Origin: Gemmatimonadota bacterium
GTDB taxonomy: Bacteria; Gemmatimonadota; Gemmatimonadetes; Gemmatimonadales; GWC2-71-9
NCBI GenBank assembly: GCA_041487875.1
Contig: JBGPOE010000010.1
Coordinates: 4,453 to 68,452, forward strand
Direction: 5' to 3'
DNA: 64,000 nucleotides
Shown piece by piece: positions 18,586 through 64,000 of the stretch (the stretch's first letter is position 1; each line of letters starts with the position of its first letter). Position numbers and translations under genes: made by a program. The notes under the pieces were generated by a model. It made no database searches. It was not told the DNA's origin and saw only the letters and a program-made list of their open reading frames with translations.

Positions 18586-19971
18586 ATGGAGCAGTCCGCT
18601 AAAGAAGCTTGGAAGCGCCTGCTCGAAGAGGCGCGACGTGAATTGTCGGATGCGACGGTGCGCACCTGGCTCGAGCCGGCCGTGCCGATCGCGCTCGACG
18701 ACGACCGTCTCATTGTCGGCGCGCCGGATCAATTCGCCGTCGAATGGAACGAGACGAAGCACGCGAGCCTGCTCGCGCGCGCCGCCGAGCGCGTCCTGGG
18801 CCGCCCGACGGCGGTCGTGTTCCGGGTGCAGGAAGACCGCCAGCACCGCCCGCAGATGGATTTCTTCGTGGCCTCGCGCGACGCGACCACGGCGACCGTG
18901 GGACCGACCGGCCCGACGACGCCGCTCAACGAGCGCTACACGTTCGAGAGCTTCGTCATCGGCAAATCGAACGAGCTCGCCGCCGCCGCGGCGCACGCGG
19001 TGTCCGAAGCCCCCGGCAAGACCTACAACCCGCTCTTCATTTACGGCGCGACCGGGCTCGGAAAGACGCACTTGATGCAGGCGATCGCGCACGCGGTCTT
19101 GCTCAAGGACACGAGCATCCGCGTCGTGTATCTCTCGGCCGAGCAGTTCTTGAACGAAGTCATCGAGTCGATGACCGCGCGGACGACGTCGGAGTTCCGG
19201 CGCCGCTACCGGGAAAACGTCGATCTCTTCCTGATGGACGACGTGCACTTCCTCGCCGGCAAGGAGCGCACACAGGAAGAGTTCTTCCACACCTTCAACG
19301 CGCTGTTCGAGGCGCGCAAGCAGATCGTACTCACGTCCGATCGCGCGCCCAAGGAAATTCCGGGGCTGGAAGACCGGCTCGTCTCCCGCTTCCAGTGGGG
19401 CATGGCGGCCGACATCGGGCACCCGGACCTGGAGCACCGCGTCGCCATCCTGCGCAAGAAGGCACAGCAGGACCACCTCGAGCTCACCATCCCCGACGAC
19501 GTGCTGCGCTTCATCGCCGAGCATGTCCGCTCGAGCGTCCGGGAGCTGGAGGGCTGCATCATCAAGCTGCTGCTCTTCGCGTCGCTCAAAAATCGCGAGA
19601 TCACCATCGAGCTCGCCCGCGAGGCGCTGTCCGACAAGATCCGCCAGGGCGACGACCGCGGCGGCCACCAGTCCCCCGCCACGCCGAGCATCGACCGGGT
19701 CCAGGAAGTCGTGGCCCGGCGGTGGGGCGTGACCCCCGAGGGCCTCCGCTCCAAGGCCCGCACCAAGACCCTTACGGTGCCCCGCCAGGTGGCGATGTAC
19801 CTGGCCCGCGACATGCTGGGGATGCAGCTGGTCGAGATCGGGCAGGCGTTCGGCGGCCGCGATCACTCGACCGTCATTCACAGCGTGGACAAGGTCGAGC
19901 GCCAGATGATGCGCGACCGCGGGTTCAAGGAACGGGTGGAGCAGACGCGGCTGGAGTTGTCCGCACTGTAG
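18586..19971 (+). CDS. dnaA: chromosomal replication initiator protein DnaA
   Basis: Walker A GATGLGKTHL, AAA+ core, and C-terminal DNA-binding domain (VAMYLARDMLGMQLVEIGQAFGGRDHSTVIHS). Confidence 0.97.
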   Translation: MEQSAKEAWKRLLEEARRELSDATVRTWLEPAVPIALDDDRLIVGAPDQFAVEWNETKHASLLARAAERVLGRPTAVVFRVQEDRQHRPQMDFFVASRDATTATVGPTGPTTPLNERYTFESFVIGKSNELAAAAAHAVSEAPGKTYNPLFIYGATGLGKTHLMQAIAHAVLLKDTSIRVVYLSAEQFLNEVIESMTARTTSEFRRRYRENVDLFLMDDVHFLAGKERTQEEFFHTFNALFEARKQIVLTSDRAPKEIPGLEDRLVSRFQWGMAADIGHPDLEHRVAILRKKAQQDHLELTIPDDVLRFIAEHVRSSVRELEGCIIKLLLFASLKNREITIELAREALSDKIRQGDDRGGHQSPATPSIDRVQEVVARRWGVTPEGLRSKARTKTLTVPRQVAMYLARDMLGMQLVEIGQAFGGRDHSTVIHSVDKVERQMMRDRGFKERVEQTRLELSAL

Positions 19972-20207
19972 CCCACATCCGGTGAGGGAAATGTGGGTGG
20001 GGTGTGGGGAGCAGCCCGGTCGCACCGAGTTCTGCCCAAAACGCCAACATCACCCACACGGCCCCAACAGTCGCCGGATGAGGTAGTGGTACGCGGGAGT
20101 CGCGACTTACCTCTGTCGCCAACATTTCCGCACGCTCTACTACTACTACTAGTTTAGAGATATAGTATAGAAGTAGAGTCTTTTCCCACTTGGAATTGTG
20201 GAGCGCC
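19972..20207. other. candidate oriC in the dnaA-dnaN spacer (DnaA-box-like cluster plus AT-rich element)
   Basis: CCCACA/TGTGGG cores lie within 9-mers at 19969-19977, 19992-20000, 20003-20011 and 20050-20058, plus TGTGGAGCG at 20197-20205. Each is a 6-7/9 match to TTATCCACA. The AT-rich tract is at 20138-20187. Confidence 0.55.
20138..20187. repeat. (TAC)4 microsatellite followed by a TAG-rich, AT-rich tract; putative DNA-unwinding element
   Basis: tactactactactagtttagagatatagtatagaagtagagtcttttccc. I counted 16 G+C in 50 nt, in a window that is otherwise roughly two-thirds G+C. Confidence 0.5.
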
Positions 20208-21314
20208 ATGAAGTTCACGATTACACGGGAACAACTGCAGGCCGGGCTGAACGCGGTGTCGGCGGCGATCCCCGCCAAAACGACGCTCCCCGTTCTGTCG
20301 AACGTGCTGGTCGAGGCCACCAAGCAAGGGCTCCGTCTGTCCGGTACCGATCTCGACATCGCGGTCAGCACCACCGTCGCGGCCGACATCGATGCCGAAG
20401 GCAGCGTCACCCTCCCCGCGAAGAAGCTGGCCGATATCGCGCGCGAGCTTCCCTCCGCTCCGATCCGGATCACCGCAGCCGGCGAGCAGCGCGTCTCGAT
20501 CGAGTGCGGGCGCTCGAAGTTCAAGCTGCTGGGCCTGCCGCGCGAGGAGTTTCCGTCCTTCCCCGCCGTGAAGTTCGACAGCGCATGGAAAGCCCAGGCG
20601 GGGGTGGTGCACAAGCTGGTGGGGCACGTCGCTTTCGCCGCCTCCACGGAAGAGAGCCGGCCCATCCTGAACGGTGTCCTCTGGGAGTTGCGCCCCGATC
20701 GGATGCGGATGGTGGCGACCAACGGCCACCGCTTGGCGAAAATGGACGTGCCGGCGAGCGGCGGCTCGACCGCCGACTTGATCGTGCCGCCCAAAGCTCT
20801 GGAGCAGATCCGCCGGCTCTTCCCCGCGGACGCGGAAATCGAGATTGCCAAGAGCGACAATCACCTGGGCTTTCGCTCCGCCACGACGCTCGTGTTCTCA
20901 CGCCTGATCGAGGGGCCCTACCCCCCCTACGAGCAGGTCATTCCGCGCGAGAACGACAAGATCGCCACCGTGGACAGAGAAGCGATGGCCGGCGCGCTCC
21001 GCCGCATGAGCGTCGTCGCGAGTGACCAGACGCACCGGATCCGGCTCGCGTTCTCGAGCGGCGCAGTCAAGTTCTCGGTGCAGACGCCCGACCTAGGTGA
21101 GGCCCAGGACGAGCTCGCGGTCACCTACGACGGCGAGCCGCTGGAGATCGGCTTCAACGCGACGTATCTACTGGAGATTCTGAAGTACATGCCCACCGAC
21201 GAAGTGCGCATCACCTTCAAGGCGCCCGAGCGGGCCGCGACGGTCGAGCCGGTGGGCTGGAACGATCCGGCGAGCTTCATGGCGCTGGTGATGCCGCTGC
21301 GTCTGGTCGACTAG
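20208..21314 (+). CDS. dnaN: DNA polymerase III beta sliding clamp
   Basis: MKFTITREQLQAGLNAVSAAIPAKTTLPVLSNVL N-terminus; 368 aa. GGAG RBS at 20200-20203. The ORF-track start 20190 is upstream of the conserved N-terminus. Confidence 0.95.
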   Translation: MKFTITREQLQAGLNAVSAAIPAKTTLPVLSNVLVEATKQGLRLSGTDLDIAVSTTVAADIDAEGSVTLPAKKLADIARELPSAPIRITAAGEQRVSIECGRSKFKLLGLPREEFPSFPAVKFDSAWKAQAGVVHKLVGHVAFAASTEESRPILNGVLWELRPDRMRMVATNGHRLAKMDVPASGGSTADLIVPPKALEQIRRLFPADAEIEIAKSDNHLGFRSATTLVFSRLIEGPYPPYEQVIPRENDKIATVDREAMAGALRRMSVVASDQTHRIRLAFSSGAVKFSVQTPDLGEAQDELAVTYDGEPLEIGFNATYLLEILKYMPTDEVRITFKAPERAATVEPVGWNDPASFMALVMPLRLVD

Positions 21315-23897: not shown

Positions 23898-24125
23898 TCA
23901 GGTTCCTGCCGAACGATCGCTCTTGGTGCGACCGAAAATGGCGACGAGCTCCGGACCGTCGCTCGTCACGCGCAACAATTTCCAGCCGCGCTTCCGCATG
24001 TCCGTCCGCCACACGATCAGTTTCTCCCACTCCGCCGCCGTGGTGCGGAACACCCGCAGATCGGCGACGGACTCCCATTGCGCGGGATACGGTTTTCGGG
24101 ACGAGGGAGAGGAAGGCAGGGCCAT
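23898..24125 (-). CDS. hypothetical small protein (up to 75 aa)
   Basis: Strong G/C third-position bias. The segment RGWKLLRVTSDGPELVAIFGR looks globular. The ATG start overlaps the predicted 3' end of rnpB by about 20 nt, so the start is uncertain. Confidence 0.4.
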   Translation of the reverse strand: MALPSSPSSRKPYPAQWESVADLRVFRTTAAEWEKLIVWRTDMRKRGWKLLRVTSDGPELVAIFGRTKSDRSAGT

Positions 24126-24487
24126 AAGCCGAGTTCTGTTTGGTCACCGTGAGGCGACCAGATGGTCATCTCTCTGGGATGGCTGTCGCCAGCCACCTCG
24201 CGCGGCCTACCCGCAGCTCGAGCGACCCGGGCCGGGTCTCGCTGCTTATTTGGCCTTGCTCCGACTGGGGGTTGCCGTGCCACGTCCGTTGCCGAACGCG
24301 CGGTGGGCTCTTACCCCGCCGTTTCACCCTTACCCCTTGGATAAAAAGGGGCGGTCTGTTCTCTGTGGCCCTATCCGTCGCCTTGCGGCGCCCAGGCGTT
24401 ACCTGGCAGTCTGCCCTGTGGAGCTCGGACTTTCCTCGACACGCCACTCCTGCCAGCGTGCCGCGACCATCGCGCCCTGCCCCCTCC
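24106..24487 (-). ncRNA. rnpB: RNase P RNA, bacterial type A
   Basis: The minus strand reads CGAGGAAAGTCCGAGCTC (24438-24421), GGGTGAAACGGCGGGGTAAGAGCCCACCGCG (24329-24299) and ACAGAACTCGGCTTAT (24139-24124). The P4 halves GTCCGAGC/ACTCGGCTT covary relative to E. coli GUCCGGGC/ACCCGGCUU. The ends (P1) are approximate. Confidence 0.85.
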
Positions 24488-46673: not shown

Positions 46674-47643
46674 GATGCCTGATCCGAAGCGGTTGTCGGA
46701 TAAGATAAGGGACGGGCTCCACGCCCGCAGTCTCGGCGCGCGGCCCACGCCCCTCGCAGACGCGCCGTCGCTCGCCCGGGTGACGGGTTTGGAGGCCCTG
46801 TGGCTGAAACGTGAAGACCGCCTGGGTGGCAATAAAGTGCGCTCCCTCGAATTCTTGCTCGCCAGAGCGTCGCCCGGCGACGTCGTGCTCACGATCGGCG
46901 GGACCGGCTCCACTCACTGTCTCGCTACCGCCTTGCACGCGCGCGCGCTTGGCTGCCGGGTGGCCCTGGCGCAGTTTCCGCAGCCCGAAACCGACAACGC
47001 CCTCGCGACGGCCGCCGCCACGATGACCCACGCCGATATTCTGCGCCGGGCACGTACCCATGCCACGTTCCCGCTTGCTCTCTTCACGGCGTTCGCCGCG
47101 GCGCGTCGCCTCGGACCGGTCACGTGGATTCCGGGCGGTGGCGCGTCAGCGGCGGGCGTCGTGGGCCAGGTGCTCGCGGGCCTCGAGCTCGCCGGGCAGA
47201 TCGAGACGCCACCCGACGCCATCGTGACCCCGCTCGGGTCCGGCGGCACGGCCGCGGGTCTCGCGCTCGCCACGATGGCGCTCGGCTGGCCCACGCGCAT
47301 TGTCGCCGTGCGCGTCGCCCCGGTGATCGTCGCGAACCGCTGGCGGATTGCCCGGCTCGCAGCCGCCGCGCGACGCCTCCTCGCTCGCCACGGCACGCCG
47401 CTCCCCGCCTCCCGCTCCCCCCTCGCTGTTTTGGTCGTCGACGCTCTTGGTCCGGGGTACGGCCACCCGACGCCGGCGGGTGAGGCGGCATGTCGGCTCG
47501 CGGCGGAACACGGGCTCGCGCTCGACTCGACGTATGGCGGTAAGGCGTTCGCGGTGCTGCCCGACTGCGCCCGGCGTGGGTTTCGGCGCGTCATCTTCTG
47601 GCATACGTTTGCTCGGCCGAACGCCTCGGAGCCCGCCGCGTGA
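46672..47643 (+). CDS. PLP-dependent ACC deaminase / D-cysteine desulfhydrase family protein
   Basis: LWLKREDRLGGNKVRSLEFLL (PLP-Lys motif). Start taken as ATG 46672; GTG 46660 is an alternative. Confidence 0.75.
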   Translation: MMPDPKRLSDKIRDGLHARSLGARPTPLADAPSLARVTGLEALWLKREDRLGGNKVRSLEFLLARASPGDVVLTIGGTGSTHCLATALHARALGCRVALAQFPQPETDNALATAAATMTHADILRRARTHATFPLALFTAFAAARRLGPVTWIPGGGASAAGVVGQVLAGLELAGQIETPPDAIVTPLGSGGTAAGLALATMALGWPTRIVAVRVAPVIVANRWRIARLAAAARRLLARHGTPLPASRSPLAVLVVDALGPGYGHPTPAGEAACRLAAEHGLALDSTYGGKAFAVLPDCARRGFRRVIFWHTFARPNASEPAA

Positions 47644-48845
47644 GCCCGTTCCCGACCGTCGATGTGACGGTGTACCCCTACGACTGCGATGCCTTCGGCC
47701 ACCTGAACCAGGGCGCGTGCCTGCTGCTCCTCGAGCGGGCGCGCTGGGACGCGCTGGCGCGGGGGCCCGGCATGGACTTGTTCAGACGCAACGGCGTATG
47801 GCCCGCCGTCCGCCGCACCACCATCGAATACAAGACCGGCGCTTTTCCCGGCGACGTGCTACGGGTGGAGACTGCGATCGTGGACCGGGGGACGACGAGC
47901 TTCACGATGCGGCACGTCATGCGCCGGCTCGCGGACGACGCCGTCGTGGCGGATGCCGAGATGGTGTTCGTCTGCATCAACGCCGTGGGGCGTCCCACTC
48001 CAGTGCCGGAGGAAGTCGCCCGGGTGCTGGGGCCGTCGCGGGCCACCGCCCGCGACCCGTTGCGCGTGGCGGCGGACGGTGCCGAGCTGGCCGTCGAGGT
48101 ACGTGGGGAAGGGCTCCCGGTCTTGCTGGTGCACGGCATGCCGTTCGATCGCTCGATGTGGCGGCATCAGATCGCGGCGTTGCCGCGCTGCAAGCGCATC
48201 GCATGCGACATGCGCGGTGTGGGAGATTCGACTTCCCCGGCGGACGGTTACACGCTGGCGCGATACGCCGACGATTTGGTGGCGGTGCTCGATGCGCTTG
48301 GCGTGAGGCGGGCGGTGGTGTGCGGGCTGTCGATGGGTGGTTATATCGCGTTCGAGTTGTTACGGCGTCACCCCGATCGCATCGCCGCGCTGGTGCTCGC
48401 CGACACGCGCGCCGAGGCCGACAGCGCGGACGTCCGGCGCCGTCGCGACGAGCTCGCTGCCCTCGCCGAGCGCGACGGTACGTTGGCGGTGGCGGAGCGC
48501 CTGCTGCCCGATCTCGTGAGCCCCGCCACCCGCTCGGCACAGCCGGAGCTACTCGATGTGGTGCGCGCTATGGCGGGCCGGTGGACGGTTCCGGGGCTGG
48601 TCGGAGCGCTGCGAGTGCTGCGTGATCGACCGGACTCTACGGAGACGCTGAGCCGGGTCGCGGTGCCGGCGCTGGTGTTGGGCGGCAGCGATGACGCGGT
48701 GACACCGCCCGACGTCGTCAAGCGGCTCGCCGCCGTGATCCCGGGAGCCCGCTACGCCGCGGTAGCCGCGGCGGGGCACTTGGCACCGCTGGAGCAGCCG
48801 CTCGCCACAACCCGGCTGATCGCGGACTTCCTGGAGACCCTCTAG
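47640..48845 (+). CDS. fusion protein: 4HBT/YbgC-like acyl-CoA thioesterase plus alpha/beta-hydrolase
   Basis: N-terminal hot-dog motif [15 protein letters not shown]-terminal [10 protein letters not shown] (oxyanion region) and nucleophile elbow GLSMGG. Confidence 0.75.
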
Positions 48846-49114
48846 CTGCCTTTACGCAGGGGCTTGCCGGGCGGAGTGTCGCTCTGGAAGATGTCGCGGT
48901 TCTTCGCGATGTAGCTCTTCCACTGGGGCGGGGTGTCTTCCTCGGGGAAGATGGCCGTGACGGGGCACTCCGGCTCGCAGGCGCCGCAGTCGATGCATTC
49001 GTCGGGGTGGATGTACAACATGTCCGGGCCCTCGTAGATGCAATCCACGGGGCACACGTCAACGCAGGAGCGATCTTTGACGTTGATGCAGGGCTCGGCA
49101 ATGATGTACGGCAT
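48842..49114 (-). CDS. fdxA: 7Fe-type ferredoxin ([3Fe-4S][4Fe-4S])
   Basis: [22 protein letters not shown] (C-x7-C-x3-CP) and [12 protein letters not shown] (C-x2-C-x2-C-x3-CP). Start is ATG 49114, inside ORF 48842..49150. Confidence 0.9.
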
Positions 49115-49389: not shown

Positions 49390-49785
49390 ATGGGTACTAT
49401 CCGTGCACGCCGCAAGGCGGAAACGCGCTCCCTGCTCCTCGAGGCTGGTCTGCGCCTGTTCGCGCAACGAGGCTTTGACGGCGCAACACTGGACGACATC
49501 GCTGACTCGGCTGGATTCACCAAGGGAGCAGTGTATCGCCAGTTCCCCTCGAAATCAGCGTTCCTGCTGGCCTTGTTCGAGCAGTACGCGGCCGTGGCCC
49601 GGGCGGGATCCGGTGCACGGCAAGCCTCTTGGTTCATTCCCATCACCATTCATTTCGCCGCCCAAGCGCTGCGCGACCCACTGCTGCGCCGGCGGTTCCC
49701 CGTCGTCTTGGCCGAGGCGCCCGACGGCGGCACAGCCGATGGGGCGCTACTCAAGGCCTTAGCCCGTGTGTTCGCTCCGGCCTAG
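49390..49785 (+). CDS. TetR-family transcriptional regulator, unusually short (131 aa)
   Basis: N-terminal [43 protein letters not shown]. The stop overlaps the thiC stop convergently by 4 nt. Confidence 0.75.
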
Positions 49786-51131
49786 TCCGCGGGCACCGCC
49801 TCCCGTTTCTCGTTCTCCCGCGGGTCACGGACACCCAACGACCGCTCGATCTCCCGCGTGATGTGCATGGAGCAGAACTTGGGCCCGCACATGGCGCAGA
49901 ACTCGGCGCTCTTGAAGTACTCGGCCGGCAACGCCTCGTCGTGCAGTTCGCGCGCCCGGTCGGGGTCGAGCGACAAGCGGAATTGCTCGTTCCAGTCGAA
50001 ACCGTACCGCGCCCGCGACAGGGCATCGTCACGGTCGCGCACCCCGGGGCGGCGCCGCGCGATGTCCGCCGCGTGGGCCGCGATCTTGTAGGCGATCACG
50101 CCCTCGCGCACCTCCTCGGCGTTGGGCAGGCCGAGGTGCTCCTTGCGGGTCACGTAGCAGAGCATGTCGGCCCCGTACCAGCCGATCATCGCCGCACCGA
50201 TCGCCGACGTGATGTGATCGTACCCCGGAGCGATGTCGGTCACGAGCGGGCCCAGGGTGTAGAACGGCGCCTCGTGACAGATCTCCTTCTCCAGCCGCAC
50301 GTTCAGCTCGATCTGGTGCATCGGGATGTGTCCCGGGCCCTCGATCATCACCTGCACGTCCCTGGCCCACGCTCGCTCGGTGAGCTCCCCCAGCACGGTG
50401 AGCTCGGCCAGCTGCGCCTTGTCAGTGGCGTCGGCGAGGGAGCCCGGCCGCAAGCCGTCGCCCAACGACAACGTCACGTCGTACTCGCGCGCGATATCAA
50501 GCAGACGGTCGTAGTGGGCGTACAGCGGGTTCTGCTTACCGTGCTGCGTCATCCAATAGGCCATGAGCGAGCCGCCGCGACTGACGATGCCCGTCACGCG
50601 GCCGAGCGCGAAGGGAATGTGCTCGCGCAGAATGCCCGCGTGCACGGTGACATAATCCACGCCCTGGTGCGCTTGGTGCTCGATGTTGTCGAAGATGTGG
50701 TCCACCGTCAGCGTGGATACGTCGCCCGCGGCTTCGATTGCCTGGTAGATCGGCACGGTGCCGATCGGCACCGGGGACGCGGCGATGATCGCCACGCGGA
50801 TCGCGTCGATGTCCCCGCCGGTGGAGAGATCCATGACCGTGTCGGCGCCGTAATGCACGGCGTGGTGGAGCTTCTCCAGCTCCTGGTCGATGTTCGAGCC
50901 GACCGCCGAGTTGCCGATGTTGGCGTTGATCTTGACGCTCGCGACCTTCCCGATGGCCATCGGGTCCAGCCGCTGCGCCAGGTGGTTCACGTTGGCGGGG
51001 ATCACCAGCCGTCCGCGCGCCACTTCCTCTCGAATGAGCTCGGGGTCGAGCTGTTCCCGCTCGGCGACCCGCCGCATCTCCGGCGTGATCGTACTCTGGC
51101 GGGCCAAGTACATCTGCGTCTTGACGCTCAT
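49782..51131 (-). CDS. thiC: phosphomethylpyrimidine synthase ThiC
   Basis: Conserved ThiC core and C-terminal [12 protein letters not shown] Fe-S motif. I prefer ATG 51131 (MSVKTQMY) because ATG 51152 lies inside the TPP riboswitch. Confidence 0.95.
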
Positions 51132-51222
51132 TGCGACTCCCTTCGCCGGCATGATCCGGATCAGGTGTTGAGGGTTTGTTCTCAGCCCGCTCGCGAGCGG
51201 GCACCCCTGTCACCGCGCAATC
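51128..51222 (-). promoter_or_regulatory. TPP (THI-box) riboswitch
   Basis: The minus strand reads ACAGGGGTGCCCGCTCGCGAGCGGGCTGAGAACAAACCCTCAACACCTGATCCGGATCATGCCGGCGAAGGGAGTCGCAATG. This matches the conserved GGGGUGC...CUGAGA...ACCCU...ACCUGAUCYGGAUAAUGCCAGCGnAGGGA pattern. The P1 3' strand (GTCGCAA) abuts the start codon. Confidence 0.9.
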
Positions 51223-56234: not shown

Positions 56235-56266
56235 ACGGGCCCCCCTGGCCTAGGAATTCGGGCTTC

Positions 56267-56284
56267 ATACTGAATTCACAGTAT
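56267..56284. promoter_or_regulatory. inverted repeat ATACTG-N6-CAGTAT upstream of the TetR/aromatic operon
   Basis: Read directly. It sits in a locally AT-richer 92-nt spacer and is flanked by two GAATTC copies. Confidence 0.25.
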
Positions 56285-56326
56285 CTTTTTTACCCGGCGT
56301 TCAATTTTCGTGCGGGAGGGTCATCC

Positions 56327-56950
56327 ATGGCCGCTGCCACAGCTGTCGCCGCATCGCGTCCCACCCGCCACGTGCGGGAGAAGCGTCGGCGCCGCCGGAC
56401 CGAGATTCTGCATGCCGCGCTGCGGGCGTTTCGTGCCCAGGGCTACCACGCCACCACGCTCGACGACATCGCGGCGCTGCTGGGGCTGCGCAAGACGGCC
56501 CTGTATCACTATTTCCCCGACAAGGAAGCAATCCTCTACGCCTGCCATCGCGAAGGCTTGGCGGAAGTCACGGGAATTCTGGCGGCGGCGCGCCGCCATT
56601 CCCCGAGCGCCGCCGCACGCCTCGCCTACGTCATTCGCGAACACGTGCGCGTCATGACAGACACACTCGAGGGATCGTCGCTCGCGCTCGAGGTGTCGGC
56701 GCTGTCGTCCCGGCACCGCGCCGAAGTGATCGCCGCGCGCGACCGCTACGAACGGGCGCTGCGCGAGCTGGTGCGGGACGGCGTGGCCGCGGGTGAGTTC
56801 CGGCGCGTCGACCCCAAGCTCGCGATGTTCGCCATTCTCGGCGCGATCAACTGGGTGGTTCGCTGGTACCGTCCCGATGGTTCTGTGCCTCCCCAACAAC
56901 TCGGTGCTCACTTCGCCGACCATCTGATTCGAGGACTTCGCACGCCATGA
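56327..56950 (+). CDS. TetR/AcrR-family transcriptional regulator
   Basis: HTH ILHAALRAFRAQGYHATTLDDIAALLGLRKTALYHYFPDKEAI. GGGAGGG RBS. The stop overlaps the next ATG (ATGA). Confidence 0.85.
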   Translation: MAAATAVAASRPTRHVREKRRRRRTEILHAALRAFRAQGYHATTLDDIAALLGLRKTALYHYFPDKEAILYACHREGLAEVTGILAAARRHSPSAAARLAYVIREHVRVMTDTLEGSSLALEVSALSSRHRAEVIAARDRYERALRELVRDGVAAGEFRRVDPKLAMFAILGAINWVVRWYRPDGSVPPQQLGAHFADHLIRGLRTP

Positions 56951-58023
56951 CCACCATTGCGGCGCATCCGGCGCCCGCCCGGCATTTCGCCTCGCGGCCC
57001 GTCGACGACTTCGAGTTCCGGGAAATCCGCTACACCAAGGGCGACGGCGTCGCGCACATCACGATCGACCGCCCTCGCCATTACAATGCCTACTCCACCG
57101 CGACGCTGGAGGAGCTCGCCACCGCGTTCCAGGACGCGAGCTTCGATGACGCCGTCGGCGTGATCGTCTTGACCGGCGCGGGCGACCGCGCGTTCTGCAC
57201 CGGCGGCGACGTGAAGGAATACGGCCGCGATTACGTCCGCGTGCCGCGGGACTACTGGAAATACATGGCGCTGTTTCGCGCCTACATCGAGAGCATTCTC
57301 AACGCCGGCAAGCCCGTCATCGCGCGGATCAACGGCATGGCCGTGGGCGGCGGCAACGAGAGCCAGCTCGCCTGTGATCTCTCCGTCATCGCGCAGCACG
57401 CGTACCTGAAGCAGGTGGGCACGCACGTCGGCTCGGTGGCGTGTGGCGGCGCGACGCAATGGCTGCCGATCGCCGTGGGCGACCGGCGGGCGCGTGAGAT
57501 GCTGCTCCTCAACGAGCCCGTCCCCGCCGCGCAGGCGCGCGAGTGGGGTCTCGTCAACTGGGTCGTGCCGTCGGTCCGCCGCGGCGACGTGTGGATCGAG
57601 ACCGCGAGCGCGGCGGAGATCGCTCAGGCGCAGACAGGCGCCGACGGCTACGCCATCGATCTCTCCCGCCTCGACGGCTTCGTGGACGAGCTGGCGCGCA
57701 AACTGCTCGCGTCGTTCCCCGAATGCACGCGCTATACGAAACAGCAGACGAACTTCTGGAAGAATTTCGCGTGGCACCAAACCGTCCCCCACGCTCAGGA
57801 CTGGCTGTCCCTGCATTACGCGTGTTGGGAGCCGCTCGAAGGCATGCGGGCGTTCGCCGAGAAACGCCCGGCGCGCTACGCGGAGCTGCGGGCGCGCGCC
57901 GCGGCGGGCGAGCCGTCGGAAGCGCGCTGGGGCGCGCCGGTGCGCGATTGCCCCGGCTGCGGTGCTCAGGACCTGCCGGCATTACACACTCACTGCGGGC
58001 TATGCGGCGCACGGCTGTCGTAA
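56947..58023 (+). CDS. crotonase-superfamily enzyme, 6-oxocyclohex-1-ene-1-carbonyl-CoA hydrolase (Oah/BamA)-like, with C-terminal CxxC...CxxC tail
   Basis: AFCTGGDVKEYG...INGMAVGGGNE crotonase core. A long insertion with IDLSRLDGFVDELARKLLASFPEC matches my recollection of Oah/BamA rather than the 260-aa BadI/MenB. The tail is DCPGCG...HCGLCG. Confidence 0.6.
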   Translation: MTTIAAHPAPARHFASRPVDDFEFREIRYTKGDGVAHITIDRPRHYNAYSTATLEELATAFQDASFDDAVGVIVLTGAGDRAFCTGGDVKEYGRDYVRVPRDYWKYMALFRAYIESILNAGKPVIARINGMAVGGGNESQLACDLSVIAQHAYLKQVGTHVGSVACGGATQWLPIAVGDRRAREMLLLNEPVPAAQAREWGLVNWVVPSVRRGDVWIETASAAEIAQAQTGADGYAIDLSRLDGFVDELARKLLASFPECTRYTKQQTNFWKNFAWHQTVPHAQDWLSLHYACWEPLEGMRAFAEKRPARYAELRARAAAGEPSEARWGAPVRDCPGCGAQDLPALHTHCGLCGARLS

Positions 58024-58724
58024 CGGGCGCTGGCCGCGGCATTGGCTGGGCGGTCGCGGCGGCCCTCGCGCCGGACGCCTGGGTCGGGGCGCTCGATTGC
58101 GCGTTCCCCGACGGCCCAGGGTCCGCGCAGCTCGCCCTCCCGCTGGACGTGCGCGACACGGCCGCGGTGAACGCAGGTGTCGAGCGCATCGCGCAGGAGC
58201 GCGGCGGGATCGACTGGGTGGTGTGCGCCGCCGGCATCACGCGCGACCGCGTGCACTGGAAGATGAGCGACGCGGAGTGGAGCGAGGTGCTGGACGTGAA
58301 CCTGACGGGGGCCTTCCGCGTGGCGCGCGCCGCGGCGCCGCATCTGCGCCGCTCGCCCTGCGGGCGCCTCGTCTTCGTGTCGTCGATCAATGGCCTGCGC
58401 GGCATGTTCGGCCAGGCCAACTACGCGGCGGCGAAGGCCGGTCTCGTGGGCCTCGCGCGGTCGCTCGCTCAGGAGCTGGCGCGCGACGGCGTGACGGTGA
58501 ACGTCGTGGCGCCCGGATGGGTGGACACCGCCATGACCCGCGTCCTGGGCGACGCGGCACGCGAACGCGCAGTGGCCCGAACGCCCCTCGGTCGCGTGGG
58601 TCGCCCCGAGGAAGTGGGCGCGCTGGTCAGGTTCCTCTGCAGCGAGACGTCGGGGTTTGTCACCGGCGCCGTGGTCCCGATCGACGGCGGCCAGCTGCTC
58701 GGCGCGGCGGGAGGCGTCGCATGA
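58002..58724 (+). CDS. short-chain dehydrogenase/reductase (FabG/BadH-like)
   Basis: TGAGRGIG Rossmann motif and the catalytic S...YAAAKAG (YxxxK). The ATG at 58002 overlaps the upstream gene by 22 nt. Confidence 0.85.
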   Translation: MRRTAVVTGAGRGIGWAVAAALAPDAWVGALDCAFPDGPGSAQLALPLDVRDTAAVNAGVERIAQERGGIDWVVCAAGITRDRVHWKMSDAEWSEVLDVNLTGAFRVARAAAPHLRRSPCGRLVFVSSINGLRGMFGQANYAAAKAGLVGLARSLAQELARDGVTVNVVAPGWVDTAMTRVLGDAARERAVARTPLGRVGRPEEVGALVRFLCSETSGFVTGAVVPIDGGQLLGAAGGVA

Positions 58725-59476
58725 CCGCGGCGCCGGCCGTCCAGCCCATCGGGCGGATCGTGCTCGACCATCCTCCACTCAACATTCTCACGCGCGGCGG
58801 GCTGCATGAGCTGCGCGTAGAGCTCGCCCGTCTGGCCGAAGAGCGCGGCCTCCGGGTCCTCGTGCTCACCGCCGCCGGCAAGCACTTCTGCGCGGGTGCC
58901 GATGTCGCCGAGCACCTGCCGCCGCACCATGCCGCGCTCATTCCGGAGTTTCTGGAGACCGTGGCCGCGCTCGCTGAGTTCCCGGTCCCCGTGGTCGTGG
59001 GAGTGCAGGGCCGGTGTCTCGGCGGCGGCTTCGAGCTGGTGCAGGCGGCCGACTTGATCGTGGCCGGCGAAAGCGCGGTGTTCGGCCAGCCGGAGATCGC
59101 GCTCGGCGTGGTGCCGCCGGCGGCCTGCGTGCTCCTGCCCGAGTGGTTGCCGCGGGGGCTCGCCGCGCGCCTGATCTACAGCGGCGCACCGATCTCCGCA
59201 CGCGAGGCCGAGCGCGCCGGGCTGGTGGCTCAGGTGGTGCCCGACGCGGCGGTGGAGGCGGCCACGCTCGAGCTGGCCGCCACGATCGCGCGGCACAGCG
59301 CCGCAGCGCTGCGCATCGCCAAGCAGACTCTCTCGGAAGAGCGCGCCTGGGCGCGCCGTGCCGCGCTCCAGCGCGCGGGCCGCATCTATCTCACCGACGT
59401 GATGGCCACAGCCGACGCGCTCGAAGGCCTCCGCGCCTTCGTGGACAAGCGTCCCGCCGTCTGGAGCGATGCATGA
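58721..59476 (+). CDS. enoyl-CoA hydratase/isomerase (Dch/BadK-like crotonase)
   Basis: LTAAGKHFCAGADV...GRCLGGGFEL...FGQPEIALGV crotonase oxyanion and catalytic motifs; 251 aa; ATGA overlap with the SDR gene. Confidence 0.8.
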   Translation: MTAAPAVQPIGRIVLDHPPLNILTRGGLHELRVELARLAEERGLRVLVLTAAGKHFCAGADVAEHLPPHHAALIPEFLETVAALAEFPVPVVVGVQGRCLGGGFELVQAADLIVAGESAVFGQPEIALGVVPPAACVLLPEWLPRGLAARLIYSGAPISAREAERAGLVAQVVPDAAVEAATLELAATIARHSAAALRIAKQTLSEERAWARRAALQRAGRIYLTDVMATADALEGLRAFVDKRPAVWSDA

Positions 59477-60651
59477 GCGCCGCGACCGTCGCGGAAGTCT
59501 TCCCCGAATGGCGCGCGGACACGGCGGACGAAATCCTCGCCCGCTGTCGCGAGCTGCTCGAAGACCCGGACTTTCCCACCGTGCGCCGCTGGCGCGAGCA
59601 GGGCGGTCGGGTGCTCGGTCACTTCCAGGTCTATTTCCCCGAGGAGATCGCGCACGCGGCGGGGCTGCTGCCCTTCAAGGTGCGTGGCGCGCCGATCGAG
59701 GCGGCGAAGGCGGACTCGCATTTCGGATCGTATCTCTGCTCGATCCTCAAGACGTCGCTCGAGCTCGCGCTCTCGAAGCACGTCGAGCTCGATCTGTTCA
59801 TCACCCATCCGATCTGCGACGCCGCCCGCAACTTGGCGGGCGTGTGGGGGCGGAATTGCTCCTACCCCTGCCGCATCCTGTATCTGCCGCAGAATCCCAA
59901 CTCCGCCTTCGCGGTGGACTACCTGCGCGATGAGTACGAGCGCCTCACGCGGGTGGTAGAAGAGGTGGCGGGCAAGCCGGTGACGGCGGAGGCGTTGCGC
60001 GTATCCATCGGCGTGTTCAATGAGAACCGGGCGCTGTTGCGCCGGCTGTACGCGCTGCGCCGCGCCGAGCCGTGGCGGGTGCCGGTGGACGAGGCGTACG
60101 TACTCGTCGCCCTCGCGGGGCTGTTGCCGCGGGAGGAGCACAATGCGCTGCTGCGCGCCGTGCTGCCGCTGATCGAGCAACGCCCGGCGCCCCGGCGCGA
60201 CAAAGTGCGGGTGATTCTCGAAGGCGGCTTCTGCGAGCAGCCGCCGCTCGATCTGCTGCGTGCCATCGGCCGCTCCTGCTACGTCGTGGATGACGACCTG
60301 CTCGTGGGCCTGCGCTGGCTCGTCGCCGACGTCCCTACCGACGGCGATCCGTGGCGCGCGCTCGCCCACGCCTACGTGGAACACTCGGCGCACAGCCCGG
60401 TGCAGCACGATCTCCGTAAGCCCAAGGAGCGGATGCTCACCGAGCGGCTGGAGCGCTCCGGCGCCGAGGCCGCGATCCTGCTCGCCGCCAAGATGTGCGA
60501 GCCCGGCCTCGAGGAGCTGGTCGTGCATACGCGCACCCTCGACCAGCGCTCGGTGCCCTACTTCGTGAGTGAGTTCGAGGAGAACATGACGGACTTCGAC
60601 CAGCTCGAGATCCAGCTGGAGACATTCGTCGAGAATCTGCTGTTCGACTGA
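59473..60651 (+). CDS. benzoyl-CoA reductase / 2-hydroxyacyl-CoA dehydratase family large subunit (BcrC/BadD-like, 392 aa)
   Basis: Family-typical pattern YFPEEIAHAAGLLPF...SYLCS...HPICDAARN...ILEGG...KMCEP. It sits directly upstream of a second paralogous large subunit and two BcrAD/BadFG ATPases. Confidence 0.7.
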   Translation: MSAATVAEVFPEWRADTADEILARCRELLEDPDFPTVRRWREQGGRVLGHFQVYFPEEIAHAAGLLPFKVRGAPIEAAKADSHFGSYLCSILKTSLELALSKHVELDLFITHPICDAARNLAGVWGRNCSYPCRILYLPQNPNSAFAVDYLRDEYERLTRVVEEVAGKPVTAEALRVSIGVFNENRALLRRLYALRRAEPWRVPVDEAYVLVALAGLLPREEHNALLRAVLPLIEQRPAPRRDKVRVILEGGFCEQPPLDLLRAIGRSCYVVDDDLLVGLRWLVADVPTDGDPWRALAHAYVEHSAHSPVQHDLRKPKERMLTERLERSGAEAAILLAAKMCEPGLEELVVHTRTLDQRSVPYFVSEFEENMTDFDQLEIQLETFVENLLFD

Positions 60652-60662
60652 GCGAGGCGCAC

Positions 60663-61955
60663 ATGGTGGAAGCAGGAGCCGGAATCGTGGGGCGCGGCGG
60701 CGAAGCCGCGGGGCGGTTGTTTCGGAGCTGGTTCGACGGGCTCACCGCCGCGGCCGAAGAGGGGCGCGGCGCGGCGTACGTGTTCGTCATGGGCAGCGTG
60801 ACCGAGCTGCTGCGCGTCTTCGACTTCCCGATCGTCTTTCCCGAGATCAACTCCCTGCAGACCGCGGTGCGCCACGTCGCGCACGAGTATCTGAATGAAG
60901 CGGAAAACTACGGTTACTCGCCCGACATCTGCGGCTACGTCAAGGCGGACGTCGCGGTCCAGTTGCGGCGCGGCGCCCACCCGATGGGTCGCATCCCCAA
61001 GCCGGCGCTCGCCGTGTGCACCAACGCGTGCAACACCTACATCAAGTGGGGTGAGATGTGGGAGCGGATGCACGGCATGCCGCTGTTCACGCTCGACGTG
61101 CCGGGCTCGCGCGGCGCGGGCGTGACGTCCGAGCCCGGGAGCGAGGACTTCGAGCGCGAGCGCCGTTACGTCGCGGGGCAGCTCGGCGAACTGATCACCC
61201 TGTGCGAACGCGTGTCGGGGCGCGCCTTCGACGTGGACCGCCTGCGCGAGCACCTGGGACACGCCAACGCGATGCAGGCGGCATGGCGCGAGCTCATCGC
61301 GTGCAACCGCAGCCGCCCGGCCGTGTTCAACGCGCTGTCGGACGGCACCATCTACCTTGGCGTGGTGAACGGCTTCCGCGGCACGGCCGAGGGCGCCGCC
61401 TTTTTCCGGGACCTGCTCGAGGAGCTGCGGTACAAAGTGGACCACGGCATCGGCACGGTCACGAAAGAGCAGTGGCGGCTCGCGTTCGTGGGCGTGCCGT
61501 GCTACCCGATCTTCCGCCGCTTCGCGGAGCTGTTTACGCACTGGGGTGGAGTGTTCGTCAACTCGACCTACCTGTGGTTCGCCTCGGGCGGCGCCCACGT
61601 CGACTTCGAATACGACTTGGCGCGGCCGCTGGAGAGTCTCGCAGAGGGCGTGCTGCGCACCGTGCGGGGGGCGATGGACAGCATGTTCTTCCAGGCGCCC
61701 GCGCTCGCCGAGATGATCGATCCGTTCGGCATCGACGGCGTCGTGTTCCATCCGATCAAGAGTTGCCGCACGGTGTCCACGGGTCTCGCCGATACGCGCC
61801 GCGCGCTGATGGAGCTGCGCGACGTGCCCAGCCTCTTCATCGAGTCCGATCTGATGGATCGCCGCGTCGTGTCGGAGGCGCAGCTCAAGAACCGCGCCGA
61901 CGCGTTCTTCGAGGGCCTTGCGTCGCGCCGCGCGCAGCCGGCCCTCGCGCACTAG
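60663..61955 (+). CDS. benzoyl-CoA reductase / 2-hydroxyacyl-CoA dehydratase family large subunit (BcrB/BadE-like, 430 aa)
   Basis: FDFPIVFPEINSLQ...PDICGYVKAD...CNTYIKW...GVVFHPIKSCRTVS pattern of the HgdA/B-BcrB/C family. Confidence 0.7.
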   Translation: MVEAGAGIVGRGGEAAGRLFRSWFDGLTAAAEEGRGAAYVFVMGSVTELLRVFDFPIVFPEINSLQTAVRHVAHEYLNEAENYGYSPDICGYVKADVAVQLRRGAHPMGRIPKPALAVCTNACNTYIKWGEMWERMHGMPLFTLDVPGSRGAGVTSEPGSEDFERERRYVAGQLGELITLCERVSGRAFDVDRLREHLGHANAMQAAWRELIACNRSRPAVFNALSDGTIYLGVVNGFRGTAEGAAFFRDLLEELRYKVDHGIGTVTKEQWRLAFVGVPCYPIFRRFAELFTHWGGVFVNSTYLWFASGGAHVDFEYDLARPLESLAEGVLRTVRGAMDSMFFQAPALAEMIDPFGIDGVVFHPIKSCRTVSTGLADTRRALMELRDVPSLFIESDLMDRRVVSEAQLKNRADAFFEGLASRRAQPALAH

Positions 61956-61964
61956 GAGCACGCC

Positions 61965-62780
61965 ATGGCCCACGCCGCGGGAGTGGATGTTGGTTCGACG
62001 CAGACCAAGGCGGTGGTCTTGGACGAGGCGCGCCGCATCGTGGGCCGCGCCCTCACCGACACGGGCGCCAACGTCATGCAGGCCGCCGAGCGGGCGTTCG
62101 CGGAAGCGCTGCGCGACGCCGACCTCCGCGAAGACCAGGTCGAATACATCGTGGGCACGGGATACGGGCGCTACAAGGTCACATTCGGGAATACCCAGGT
62201 CACGGAAATCAGCTGCCACGCCCGCGGCGCGGTGCACATGTTCCCCGCCACGCGCACCGTGCTCGACATGGGGGGCCAGGACACCAAGGCGATTCGTGTC
62301 TCCCCCACGGGCGAGATCGTGGACTTCTGCATGAACGACAAGTGCGCGGCCGGCACCGGACGCTTCCTCGGCGCCGCCGCGGCGGCGCTCGACCTGCCGC
62401 TCGCCGAGCTCGGGCCCACGGCACTGCGCGGCGAACGGCCGGTGAAGATCAGCACCACGTGCACCGTGTTCGCCGAGTCCGAGGTGCTGTCGTGGGTCGG
62501 CAAGGGCCGGAAGATCGAGGACATCCTGTTGGGCGTCCACGAATCAATTGCCGCGCGGTCGCTTGGCTTGCTGCGGCGCGTCGGGATCACGCCGGACCTG
62601 ACCTTCACCGGGGGCGTGACGAAGAACCGCGCGATGGTGGAGGTCCTCAGCCGCCGGCTGGGCATGGAGCTGAACGTCGGGGAGGACTCGCATTATATGG
62701 GCGCACTTGGCGCCGCCTTGTTCGCGACGGACCGGATCCTCGCGGGGCGCGCGCCGACCGCCGCAGGCGGCACGGCATGA
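61965..62780 (+). CDS. BcrAD/BadFG-family ATPase ([4Fe-4S]-bridging electron-activating subunit), paralogue 1 (271 aa)
   Basis: ASKHA-fold N-terminus [24 protein letters not shown], cluster Cys motifs [12 protein letters not shown] and [19 protein letters not shown]. Confidence 0.85.
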
Positions 62781-63598
62781 CCTACACCGCCGGCATCGAT
62801 ATCGGCTCGACCTACGTGAAGGCGGTGATCGTCGGCGCGGAGGGCACGCCGCTCGGCCGGGCCCTTGAGCCGACCGGATTCAAGCTCGCGGCGGCGGCGG
62901 AGCACGCCCTGGCCGAGGCGCTCGAGCGCGCTGGCGTGGCGCGCCAGGACCTCGGCTATTTGGTCACCACGGGCTTCGGCCGCCACCAGGTCGGCATCGG
63001 CGACGTCGCGGTGACGGACTTGACCGCGGCCGCGCGCGGCGCCACCCACCTGTTCCCCGGGACACGGACCGTCCTCGACGTCGGCGGCCATACGATGAAA
63101 GCAAGTCGCTTAGGCCCGAACGGACGGGTCCAGAGTTTCCGGCTCAACGACAAGTGCGCGGCCGGCACCGGCGCGTTCCTCGAGAAGACGGCGCGCTACA
63201 TGGGGTATTCGATCACGGAGATCGGGCCGCTCGTCGCGACCTCCAAGCAGGCCGTGTCCATTTCCGGCGTGTGCGCCGTCTTCGCGGAATCCGAGGTGAT
63301 CAACTGGTTGTCCGAAGGCGCGGCACCCGCCGACATCATGCACGGCGCCATCGTGTCGCTCGTCGACCGCTGCGTGCAGCTTCTGAAGCGCGTGCGCATG
63401 GAGCCTGAATTCACCCTCGTCGGCGGAATTCTCCGGTTCGAGCGGATGGTGGACGTCGTGCGAGCCGCCCTCGGCGGCGCCGTCAACACACCGCCCGGGG
63501 ACCTCGTGCAGTTCATGGCGGCCTTGGGTGCCGCGCTCCTGGGGCAGCGCCGCCTCGAGCGTCTGGCGGCCGGCCGTGATGCCGCGCCCGTTGCCTGA
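62777..63598 (+). CDS. BcrAD/BadFG-family ATPase, paralogue 2 (273 aa)
   Basis: [47 protein letters not shown]; ATGA overlap with paralogue 1. The 846-aa ORF-track entry is only in frame for this last part. Confidence 0.85.
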
Positions 63599-63815
63599 CC
63601 AGGGCTGGGAGCGCCGCTTCGTCGCGGACGCGAACCGCGCGCGGGAGGCGGTTGCGCTGTACCAGGCGGCCGGCTTCGAGGTGCGGACGGTGCCTGCCGG
63701 GCCGGAAGATTTCGACACCGGATGCGAGCCGTGCGAGCTCGTGCAGCGCGGTGCGTTTCAGGTGATCTACACGCGGCGCGCGGCACAGGCCGCGATGCCG
63801 TCGGAGGAATCATGA
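63579..63815 (+). CDS. hypothetical small protein (78 aa) inside the aromatic operon
   Basis: [36 protein letters not shown]...CEPCELV. Coding-type G/C third-position bias. It overlaps both neighbours (20 nt and 4 nt). Confidence 0.5.
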   Translation: MPRPLPDQGWERRFVADANRAREAVALYQAAGFEVRTVPAGPEDFDTGCEPCELVQRGAFQVIYTRRAAQAAMPSEES

Positions 63816-64000
63816 GAGCCGCCGTGTTCCACGGTGCCAACCAGCCGCTCGAGCTCGCGGACATCCCCACCCCGCGTCCCGGGCCGGGCGAAGCGCTCGT
63901 GCGCGTCGCCGCCTGCGGCCTGTGCCACACCGACCTCCATTATCTCGATCACGGCGTCAAGACGTTCAAGACGCCACCTCTCGTGTTGGGGCACGAGGCC
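63812..64000 (+). CDS. Zn-dependent alcohol dehydrogenase (MDR family; Had-like), N-terminal fragment; 3' end outside window
   Basis: MRAAVFHG...VAACGLCHTDLHY...LGHEA carries the catalytic-zinc ligand motifs. Confidence 0.8.
   Translation, partial: MRAAVFHGANQPLELADIPTPRPGPGEALVRVAACGLCHTDLHYLDHGVKTFKTPPLVLGHEA

Follow-up and report, generated by a model that had tools for sequence, protein, structure and literature searches.

The 64,000-nucleotide stretch of DNA analyzed here, hereafter the window (Gemmatimonadota bacterium assembly GCA_041487875.1, contig JBGPOE010000010.1, positions 4,453 to 68,452 of the forward strand), runs at its 3' end into an operon predicted to encode an ATP-dependent aryl-coenzyme A (CoA) reductase and associated enzymes. 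Coordinates are window positions, unless they are prefixed with the number of a locus fetched for comparison (L001 and so on). From 56327 to the window edge, ten open reading frames (ORFs) follow one another on the plus strand. Preceded by an AT-rich region resembling a promoter or operator (56255..56310), the first gene encodes a TetR-family regulator of 207 aa (56327..56950; Pfam TetR_N and TetR_C_24). It is followed by genes for a 358-aa crotonase of the MenB/BadI/Oah group, a putative ring-opening beta-ketoacyl-CoA hydrolase (56947..58023), for a FabG-like short-chain dehydrogenase/reductase (SDR) of 240 aa (58002..58724; Pfam adh_short_C2), a putative 3-hydroxyacyl-CoA dehydrogenase for the opened ring, and for a 251-aa crotonase that is a candidate Dch-like dienoyl-CoA hydratase (58721..59476). 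Four putative reductase genes come next. Two encode large subunits, one MbdN-like (gamma, 392 aa, hereafter N; 59473..60651) and one MbdO-like and catalytic by homology (beta, 430 aa, hereafter O; 60663..61955), and two encode ATPases, one MbdQ-like (alpha, 271 aa, hereafter Q; 61965..62780) and one MbdP-like (delta, 273 aa, hereafter P; 62777..63598). The last two ORFs encode a conserved small protein of 78 aa from an unnamed family (GWERRF...LGFEV...CxxC...IYTR), hereafter named s78 (63579..63815), and the 5' part of a divergent Had-like zinc-dependent alcohol dehydrogenase (ADH) whose gene crosses the window edge (63812..64000).

Neighboring genes overlap or lie 9-11 nt apart. ATGA stop/start overlaps occur at 56947, 58721, 59473, 62777 and 63812, longer overlaps at 58002 (22 nt) and 63579 (20 nt), and the two intergenic gaps measure 11 nt and 9 nt. 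The ORF list and a start-site check thus reproduced exactly the chain of ten genes described in the original prediction, and Pfam assigned the gene families that it had named. Identical starts were found in the public gene calls of contig L001 (GCA_041498915.1 JBGQJG010000003.1; 70,492 bp), retrieved through an exact protein match. On this contig the ADH gene is complete (340 aa, L001 13150-14172) and its stop is overlapped by a gene for a 149-aa hemerythrin (L001 14169-14618), after which a 97-nt gap, holding the sole promoter-like site of the region, leads to a SufR-like gene. Because the hemerythrin gene overlaps the ADH stop and the SufR-like gene has its own promoter-like site, the operon comprises eleven genes; the ten predicted genes stand for the window, but the operon ends one gene later. 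A scan for promoter and terminator consensus sequences was uninformative within the operon. Dozens of independent contigs from metagenome-assembled genomes (MAGs) show the same gene order, which is therefore not a chance arrangement.

Class I benzoyl-CoA reductases have been divided into three types: BCR, MBR and BZD (Fuchs et al. 2025, PMC11971306). In the operon, Pfam detects PF06050 (HGD-D) twice and PF01869 (BcrAD/BadFG) twice, in four adjacent genes. The solved structure of the 3-methylbenzoyl-CoA reductase (MBR) of Thauera chlorobenzoica (PDB 9g87/9gai) provided the best counterpart for each of them. N matched MbdN (9g87_B) with 541 bits (E 2e-161), without gaps over 384 residues, and shares with it 59.5% identity (blastp) and seven cysteines. 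O matched MbdO (9g87_A) with 521 bits (E 1.4e-155) and 52-54% identity (blastp 52.5%), Q matched MbdQ (9gai_D) with 410 bits (E 3e-122) and 69.8% identity (blastp), and P matched MbdP (9gai_C) with 291 bits (E 1e-85) and 54.4% identity (blastp). The large subunits reached about 92 bits each against BzdN and BzdO. Since the four subunits match MbdN, MbdO, MbdQ and MbdP one to one, the reductase is, by homology, an MBR-type (MbdONQP) class I aryl-CoA reductase. The curated NCBIfam models agree with this placement. The BcrC model ranked first for N (272 bits, cut-off 421) and the BcrB model first for O (187 bits, cut-off 487); the characterized MbdN and MbdO also score below these cut-offs, with 230 and 221 bits, which places the window enzyme where MBR sits. 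Scores against the BzdN and BzdO models were far lower (86 bits for a cut-off of 454 and 93 bits for a cut-off of 449). The predicted class I heterotetramer, with two large subunits and two ATPases, is thus borne out; the label "class-I-like" was right about the class, but the enzyme belongs to the already characterized MBR type and not to an unplaced group.

Automatic annotation offers a different name for such proteins: NCBI calls homologs of the large subunits "2-hydroxyacyl-CoA dehydratase", in line with their Pfam assignment to HGD-D, and the two ATPases match activators of 2-hydroxyacyl-CoA dehydratases (HAD) with about 212 and 160 bits. The four-subunit enzyme would then be a dehydratase together with its activator, or some other member of the BCR/HAD ketyl-radical enzymes with a non-aromatic substrate, and the crotonases and dehydrogenases would serve ordinary acyl-CoA beta-oxidation. 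However, the two ATPases are paralogs and not duplicates, each with a different Mbd subunit as its best match, where a dehydratase has one homodimeric activator. The large subunits reach only 124 and 93 bits against HadC and HadB, four to five times less than against MbdN and MbdO, and the NCBIfam HadB and HadC models give 125 and 150 bits for cut-offs of 750 and 700. In addition, sister clusters described below tie this reductase to genuine Had, Oah and BzdNOPQ. We therefore rejected a dehydratase identity, which appears highly improbable, and the large subunits fall outside the dehydratases by their scores against the Mbd and HadB/HadC references, as had been claimed.

Residues known to hold Fe-S (iron-sulfur) clusters point the same way as the MBR-type assignment. 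Both window ATPases and T. chlorobenzoica MbdQ and MbdP share an invariant Cys127 (in NDKCAAGTG) and Cys166, so the cluster-ligand cysteines read in both ATPases by the first analysis are indeed there. Cys90, Cys123 and Cys368 of O are kept in MbdO and align with BzdO Cys95, Cys128 and Cys380, the ligands of the catalytic [4Fe-4S]-OH2 cluster. The HMMER alignment of O to BzdO starts past the catalytic BzdO Glu65; a FPEINSLQ motif is common to O and MbdO. BzdO His131 aligns with a Tyr in O and with a Phe in MbdO.

The enzymes around the reductase are more divergent. For the hydratase, the ADH and the long crotonase, the best NCBIfam model is in each case the matching enzyme of the benzoyl-CoA pathway. 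The 358-aa crotonase scored 207.6 bits against Oah (TIGR03200; cut-off 464.45), 158.8 against MenB and 152.8 against BadI, and is thus nearer to Oah by model score, as predicted. Its best stretch against the Oah model is limited to residues 30-218; the protein shares 32-36% identity with genuine Oah and MbdY and lacks both Oah-specific insertions. At its C-terminus it carries a CxxC-x11-CxxC zinc ribbon (57949-58020), which is kept in the corresponding crotonases of Gemmatimonadota, Acidobacteriota and Chloroflexota and absent from genuine Oah and MbdY. The complete ADH reached 244.5 bits against Had (TIGR03201; cut-off 338.65) and is 36% identical to MbdX. For the 251-aa crotonase, the best model was cyclohexa-1,5-dienecarbonyl-CoA hydratase (TIGR03189; 184 bits, cut-off 292.5); it is 39% identical to T. 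chlorobenzoica MbdW, and its counterparts in related loci share 55-70% identity with it. The top NCBIfam matches of the SDR are 3-oxoacyl reductases. On these scores, the long crotonase and the ADH of the window are paralogs, and not orthologs, of genuine Oah and Had. The Oah-, Had- and Dch-like labels of the original prediction therefore hold as family-level likeness, but all three proteins fall below the cut-offs of the models concerned; since the likeness stops at that level, a "complete ring-cleavage module" can only be presumed.

To place the operon among bacteria, we considered its closest homologs and flanking genes. The closest homologs (74-94% identity) are metagenomic, and those with a name come from Gemmatimonadota/Gemmatimonadales MAGs. 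Nine loci labeled Gemmatimonadota, Gemmatimonadales or Gemmatimonadaceae also have the flanking genes, namely thiC, def and one that is MocA/MobA-like, with 65-91% identity. With nearest relatives and syntenic flanks all in Gemmatimonadales MAGs, the host is non-proteobacterial and a member of Gemmatimonadales, so that the first supposition about its taxonomy was right. The remaining window is core chromosome, with mutS, yidC, mnmE, dnaA, dnaN and polA. Since dnaA and dnaN lie at 18586-21314, with yidC and mnmE close by, some 35 kb separate the operon from the likely origin of replication. Two structured RNAs score above the Rfam gathering threshold: a thiamine pyrophosphate riboswitch (51121-51218, minus strand) upstream of thiC (49782-51152) and, further upstream, a bacterial RNase P RNA (24109-24483, minus strand). 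A tblastn search of plasmids with the large subunit returned only distant relatives, with at most 34% identity.

A scan of GTDB species representatives yielded at least 578 confirmed stretches with related genes, of which the best 80 were compared by mapping the window proteins on them and by predicting their genes with a codon model for which the window had served as training set. These 80 loci are mostly from Gemmatimonadota and also include MAGs of Blastocatellia, Vicinamibacterales, Thermoanaerobaculia, Anaerolineae, Caldilineaceae, Ardenticatenaceae and Acidimicrobiia; all come from MAGs, none from an isolate. In a metagenome survey, class I BCR genes had been assigned through KEGG to MAGs from phyla like these, one of the MAGs being from Gemmatimonadota (PMC11704145), and no class I BCR genes were found in 37 reference genomes of the FCB superphylum (PMC10936416). 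The Joint Genome Institute auto-annotation labels the cluster benzoyl-CoA reductase. The module had been considered unexpected and possibly uncharacterized in such a host; uncharacterized it is, but it is widespread in MAGs rather than rare.

Two cluster types were distinguished in this comparison. Type 1, that of the window, is the commonest architecture among the nearest relatives in Gemmatimonadales; its genes run TetR, 358-aa crotonase, SDR, Dch-like crotonase, N, O, Q, P, s78 and ADH, followed in some cases by hemerythrin. The SDR and the co-transcription of TetR, noticed earlier as departures from textbook clusters, are therefore no oddities of this contig, and neither is the 78-aa gene, since all are conserved in relatives. 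Reductase-centered versions of the cluster occur in MAGs of Acidobacteriota and Chloroflexota. In type 2, TetR is followed by ADH', long crotonase', SDR', in many cases a thiolase and a DUF35-type protein, and then by Dch-like crotonase, N, O, Q, P and s78. Its ADH' passes the Had cut-off (463 bits for 339), is 54% identical to T. chlorobenzoica MbdX and represents the genuine Had to which the window ADH is 39% identical; its crotonase' passes the Oah cut-off (562 bits for 464) and is 50% identical to MbdY. Its Dch-like copy is under the TIGR03189 cut-off, as in the window (188 bits). In type-2 clusters where they were mapped (L043 and L053), the genes 3' of s78 encode a zinc-ribbon and tetratricopeptide repeat protein (9 loci; L043 14686-15390) and an isopropylmalate/homocitrate-synthase-like protein (12 loci; L043 15387-16637).

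T. chlorobenzoica, a Rhodospirillales MAG, a KSB1-like contig and type-2 Gemmatimonadota have MBR-type clusters in which orthologous Had and Oah are kept, and an SDR is also found in the last three of these. Because every other MBR-type cluster examined retains both enzymes, type 1 is the derived variant. In some contigs a second reductase gene set was found. In L053, directly 5' of the MBR-type genes, it consists of genuine BzdN and BzdO by score (490 and 681 bits), beside a ferredoxin and an 855-aa BzdV-like Fe-S flavoprotein (L053 2737-9828). The Gemmatimonadota contigs L024, L044 and L068 also carry a second reductase directly 5' of the MBR-type genes, which was scored in L053 only, and in all four loci it is accompanied by two ATPases. 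Some Gemmatimonadota MAGs thus hold, as judged by these scores, two class I reductase types side by side. IorAB-type 2-oxoacid:ferredoxin oxidoreductases are present in six or seven loci. Since sister clusters carry genuine Had, Oah and a BzdNOPQ set, the reductase clade is tied to anaerobic aromatic catabolism and the benzoyl-CoA pathway.

The replacement of Had and Oah raises the question of the substrate. MBR is a promiscuous enzyme, and the type-1 operon could be specialized for a substituted or otherwise modified aryl-CoA (e.g., methyl-, hydroxy- or halo-benzoyl-CoA). The ADH and the zinc-ribbon hydrolase would then form a co-adapted pair for a substituted 6-hydroxy/6-oxo intermediate, and benzoyl-CoA would be left to type-2 or BZD-type clusters. 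Such a specialization is favored by the paralogs that score below the curated cut-offs, in place of the Had and Oah of every other MBR-type cluster examined, and by the presence of BZD-type and MBR-type reductases side by side on some Gemmatimonadota contigs. A similar division is known in Azoarcus sp. CIB, where the mbd cluster serves for 3-methylbenzoate and a separate bzd cluster for benzoate (PMC4424350). However, type-1 and type-2 reductases are about 70% identical, and no position of the N and O subunits separates the types at the 85% level when specificity-determining columns are sought, which suggests that their reductase chemistry is the same. In a crude neighbor-joining tree, rooted on T. 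chlorobenzoica Mbd alone, lacking support values and thus indicative only, type 1 falls mostly in one sub-clade next to that of type 2, so the types may just track host lineage. Among the loci compared, no genome was seen to hold both types, and the operon has no linked gene for a ligase or transporter that would point to a particular substrate. We regard a dedicated substituted substrate as possible but doubtful; a different substrate and a non-orthologous replacement of the two enzymes are both compatible with the data.

Downstream from the second ATPase gene, s78 has no match in Pfam or NCBIfam. Residues W10, E11, R12, R13, F14, C49, C52, Y64, T65 and R66 are invariant among its close relatives. 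An s78 profile searched against 1.84 billion representatives retrieved 815 proteins at E <=0.001, nearly all of 66-130 aa. In the fetched loci, the same profile matched 60 of 17,460 six-frame ORFs, one per locus. Sufficient sequence downstream was available for 63 loci, and in 55 of these the match lies directly 3' of the second ATPase gene. The family reaches the characterized system, with members in the loci of T. chlorobenzoica and Rhodospirillales as well as in KSB1-like ones. The annotation of the T. chlorobenzoica chromosome (L084, CP018839.1) has no gene in the interval that follows mbdP, and an uncalled ORF directly after mbdP (L084 ~12792-13110) is the sole s78-profile match among the 293 ORFs of this locus (30.9 bits). 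A near-identical contig has the same ORF annotated as a hypothetical protein of 106 aa (L085 5397-5717), and in L085, L086, L087 and L088 an equivalent ORF likewise comes after the second ATPase gene. Cluster look-ups of the window proteins and the s78 relatives gave no functional names. The AlphaFold model of s78 shows a small beta-alpha-beta-alpha-beta unit with the CxxC just ahead of a short helix, and a Foldseek search of PDB with this model returned nothing with E <0.6.

An association with hemerythrin was seen repeatedly. A protein encoded in a Caldilineaceae MAG (L047 14221-15063) and a metagenomic protein (P0269) have s78 fused to a hemerythrin HHE domain, and separate hemerythrin genes recur by type-1, type-2, Rhodospirillales and KSB1-like clusters. 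As a working hypothesis, s78 and hemerythrin could be conserved accessories that sense or repair oxidative or nitrosative damage to the Fe-S reductase. A bolder version would make s78 an unrecognized fifth partner of MBR that forms with hemerythrin a module for sensing O2 or nitric oxide (NO) or for Fe-S repair, in lineages from Betaproteobacteria to Gemmatimonadota, with type 1 adding a new pair of zinc-ribbon hydrolase and dehydrogenase; we put it forward tentatively, as an unlikely but attractive extension. Next to the operon, the SufR-like gene (L001 14716-15378) encodes a putative regulator of Fe-S cluster biosynthesis (122 bits, under the cut-off of 179). SufB/C/D/S-like genes, judged by their N-terminal sequences, lie downstream in related loci, and the Fe-S-rich reductase operon may thus adjoin suf machinery.

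Regulation of the operon was approached through the TetR gene, which is kept as the first gene in 45 loci and whose product matches MbdR (4uds) weakly (44 bits). The operator consensus of MbdR in Azoarcus is ATACN10GTAT (PMC4424350). Its only match in the window (0.04 expected by chance) is ATACTGAATTCACAGTAT at 56267-56284, 43 bp 5' of the TetR start. This motif is absent upstream of TetR in 44 of 44 related loci, the closest relatives differing at the defining bases, and an MbdR-type operator at this site was rejected as a probable coincidence since it is not conserved in relatives. At the same position, relatives have TTGACA, then a GTTCAAAWTTTGAAC palindrome, then a further GTTCAAAT half-site. 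In its strict form the palindrome was found at 21 of 42 loci; it occurs 22 times in 1.29 Mb, and 21 of these sites sit at this position upstream of TetR. This palindrome is the conserved element of the upstream region; the window keeps only the GTTCAAT half-site (56299). Some Chloroflexota and Acidobacteriota loci, where mapping found no TetR, carry a PaaX-like regulator (L047 7824-8651, L035 and L081). The PaaX family is known for aryl-CoA sensing.

The operon can be compared with four known systems. With the mbd cluster of T. chlorobenzoica 3CB-1 and Azoarcus/Aromatoleum sp. CIB, it shares the four subunits one to one (52-70% identity) with their cluster cysteines, an s78-family ORF after the second ATPase gene, a TetR-family regulator, a Zn-ADH, and a long and a short crotonase. 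In contrast, the order is N-O-Q-P here and O-N-Q-P in mbd, and TetR is a co-transcribed first gene, whereas mbdR forms an operon of its own. MbdX and MbdY have paralogs here (36% and 32%), namely the ADH and the long crotonase, the latter with a zinc ribbon, and the short crotonase is just 39% identical to MbdW. Unlike mbd, the operon includes hemerythrin and has no linked genes for a ligase, thiolase, 3-hydroxyacyl-CoA dehydrogenase or amidohydrolase, and its host belongs to Gemmatimonadota and not to Betaproteobacteria. BcrCBAD with Dch, Had and Oah of Thauera aromatica represents the same enzyme family and predicted reaction order, and supplies the best NCBIfam models; however, all scores stay far below the equivalog cut-offs (272/421, 187/487, 184/293, 244/339 and 208/464), and no ferredoxin or KorAB genes are adjacent here. 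BzdNOPQ of Aromatoleum sp. CIB (PDB 8s02) has homologous subunits, with the three Cys ligands of the catalytic cluster aligned, but identity of the window subunit to BzdN is about 27%, and the genuine BzdNO of some related Gemmatimonadota contigs is a separate gene set. HadBC with HadI of Clostridioides difficile has the same superfamily and fold, and a BcrAD/BadFG-type ATPase that drives electron injection. It differs by its single homodimeric activator, its catalytic rather than stoichiometric use of ATP, its context of amino-acid fermentation and its far lower similarity to the window proteins (124 and 93 bits).

Taken together, these data make it probable that the eleven-gene Gemmatimonadales operon serves for anaerobic, ATP-dependent dearomatization of benzoyl-CoA, or of a close ring-substituted analog, followed by ring opening. 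In the proposed pathway, the TetR repressor would keep the operon off until an aryl-CoA builds up. The MbdQ-like and MbdP-like ATPases would share a bridging [4Fe-4S] cluster, with ATP hydrolysis driving low-potential electrons into the dimer of the MbdN-like and MbdO-like subunits. By homology to the solved and assayed enzymes, the three-Cys [4Fe-4S] cluster of the MbdO-like subunit would then reduce the ring to a cyclic dienoyl-CoA. Water would be added to this product by the Dch-like hydratase, the resulting alcohol oxidized by the Had-like Zn-ADH, the beta-keto ring split by the zinc-ribbon crotonase of the MenB/BadI/Oah group, and the 3-hydroxyacyl-CoA product oxidized by the FabG-like SDR. 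The CxxC protein s78 and hemerythrin might protect or repair the O2- and NO-sensitive Fe-S reductase. The electron donor, the system that regenerates it and a CoA ligase would be encoded elsewhere in the genome.

Several points weigh against this interpretation. The host is an uncultured soil bacterium and functions were read from sequence alone. The hydratase, the dehydrogenase and the hydrolase all score under the cut-offs of the curated families, the ADH and the long crotonase are just 32-39% identical to genuine Had/Oah and MbdX/MbdY, and the three reactions are putative assignments by family and position. Genes for a CoA ligase, a dedicated ferredoxin, a 2-oxoacid:ferredoxin oxidoreductase and a thiolase are all missing from the 64-kb window and the 2 kb beyond it. 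This agrees with the lack of a ligase and ferredoxin noted in the original prediction, and the tblastn searches that covered this region looked for a CoA ligase, an IorAB/KorAB-type oxidoreductase, a BzdM-like ferredoxin, a BzdV-like oxidoreductase and a thiolase. The only ferredoxin of the window is an FdxA-type 7Fe protein (48842-49114, minus strand; 127 bits, cut-off 125) located 7 kb upstream in a housekeeping context, where its gene adjoins that of a fusion between a YbgC-like thioesterase and a PcaD-like alpha/beta hydrolase (47640-48845, plus strand). As for s78, its structural model is of middling confidence (predicted local distance difference test score, pLDDT, of 70) and has no structural match, s78 is absent from PDB, and the solved MBR entries have no s78-like chain. 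Recombinant MbdONQP was reportedly active without a fifth protein (Tiedt and colleagues, 2018). As the MBR entries lack such a chain and MbdONQP is reported to work without it, s78 does not belong to the catalytic core.

Biochemical work on class I benzoyl-CoA reductases is limited to a few facultatively anaerobic Proteobacteria (PMC11971306). The operon described here is real, intact, widely conserved and uncharacterized, and it is already visible to automatic annotation. It does not overturn the known mechanism; what is new is the variant set of ring-processing enzymes and the two conserved accessories around a known, MBR-type reductase. The replaced hydrolase/dehydrogenase pair is a target for follow-up, as are the small protein and the hemerythrin, which may explain the upkeep of an O2-labile enzyme. 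If the proposal for these accessories is true, the s78/hemerythrin module would let a highly O2-sensitive "Birch reductase" operate in largely aerobic soil phyla. With at least 578 stretches found, MBR-type enzymes are common among uncultured members of Gemmatimonadota, Acidobacteriota and Chloroflexota from soil and groundwater, and these dominant "aerobic" soil phyla may contribute to the O2-free turnover of lignin-derived and pollutant aromatics.

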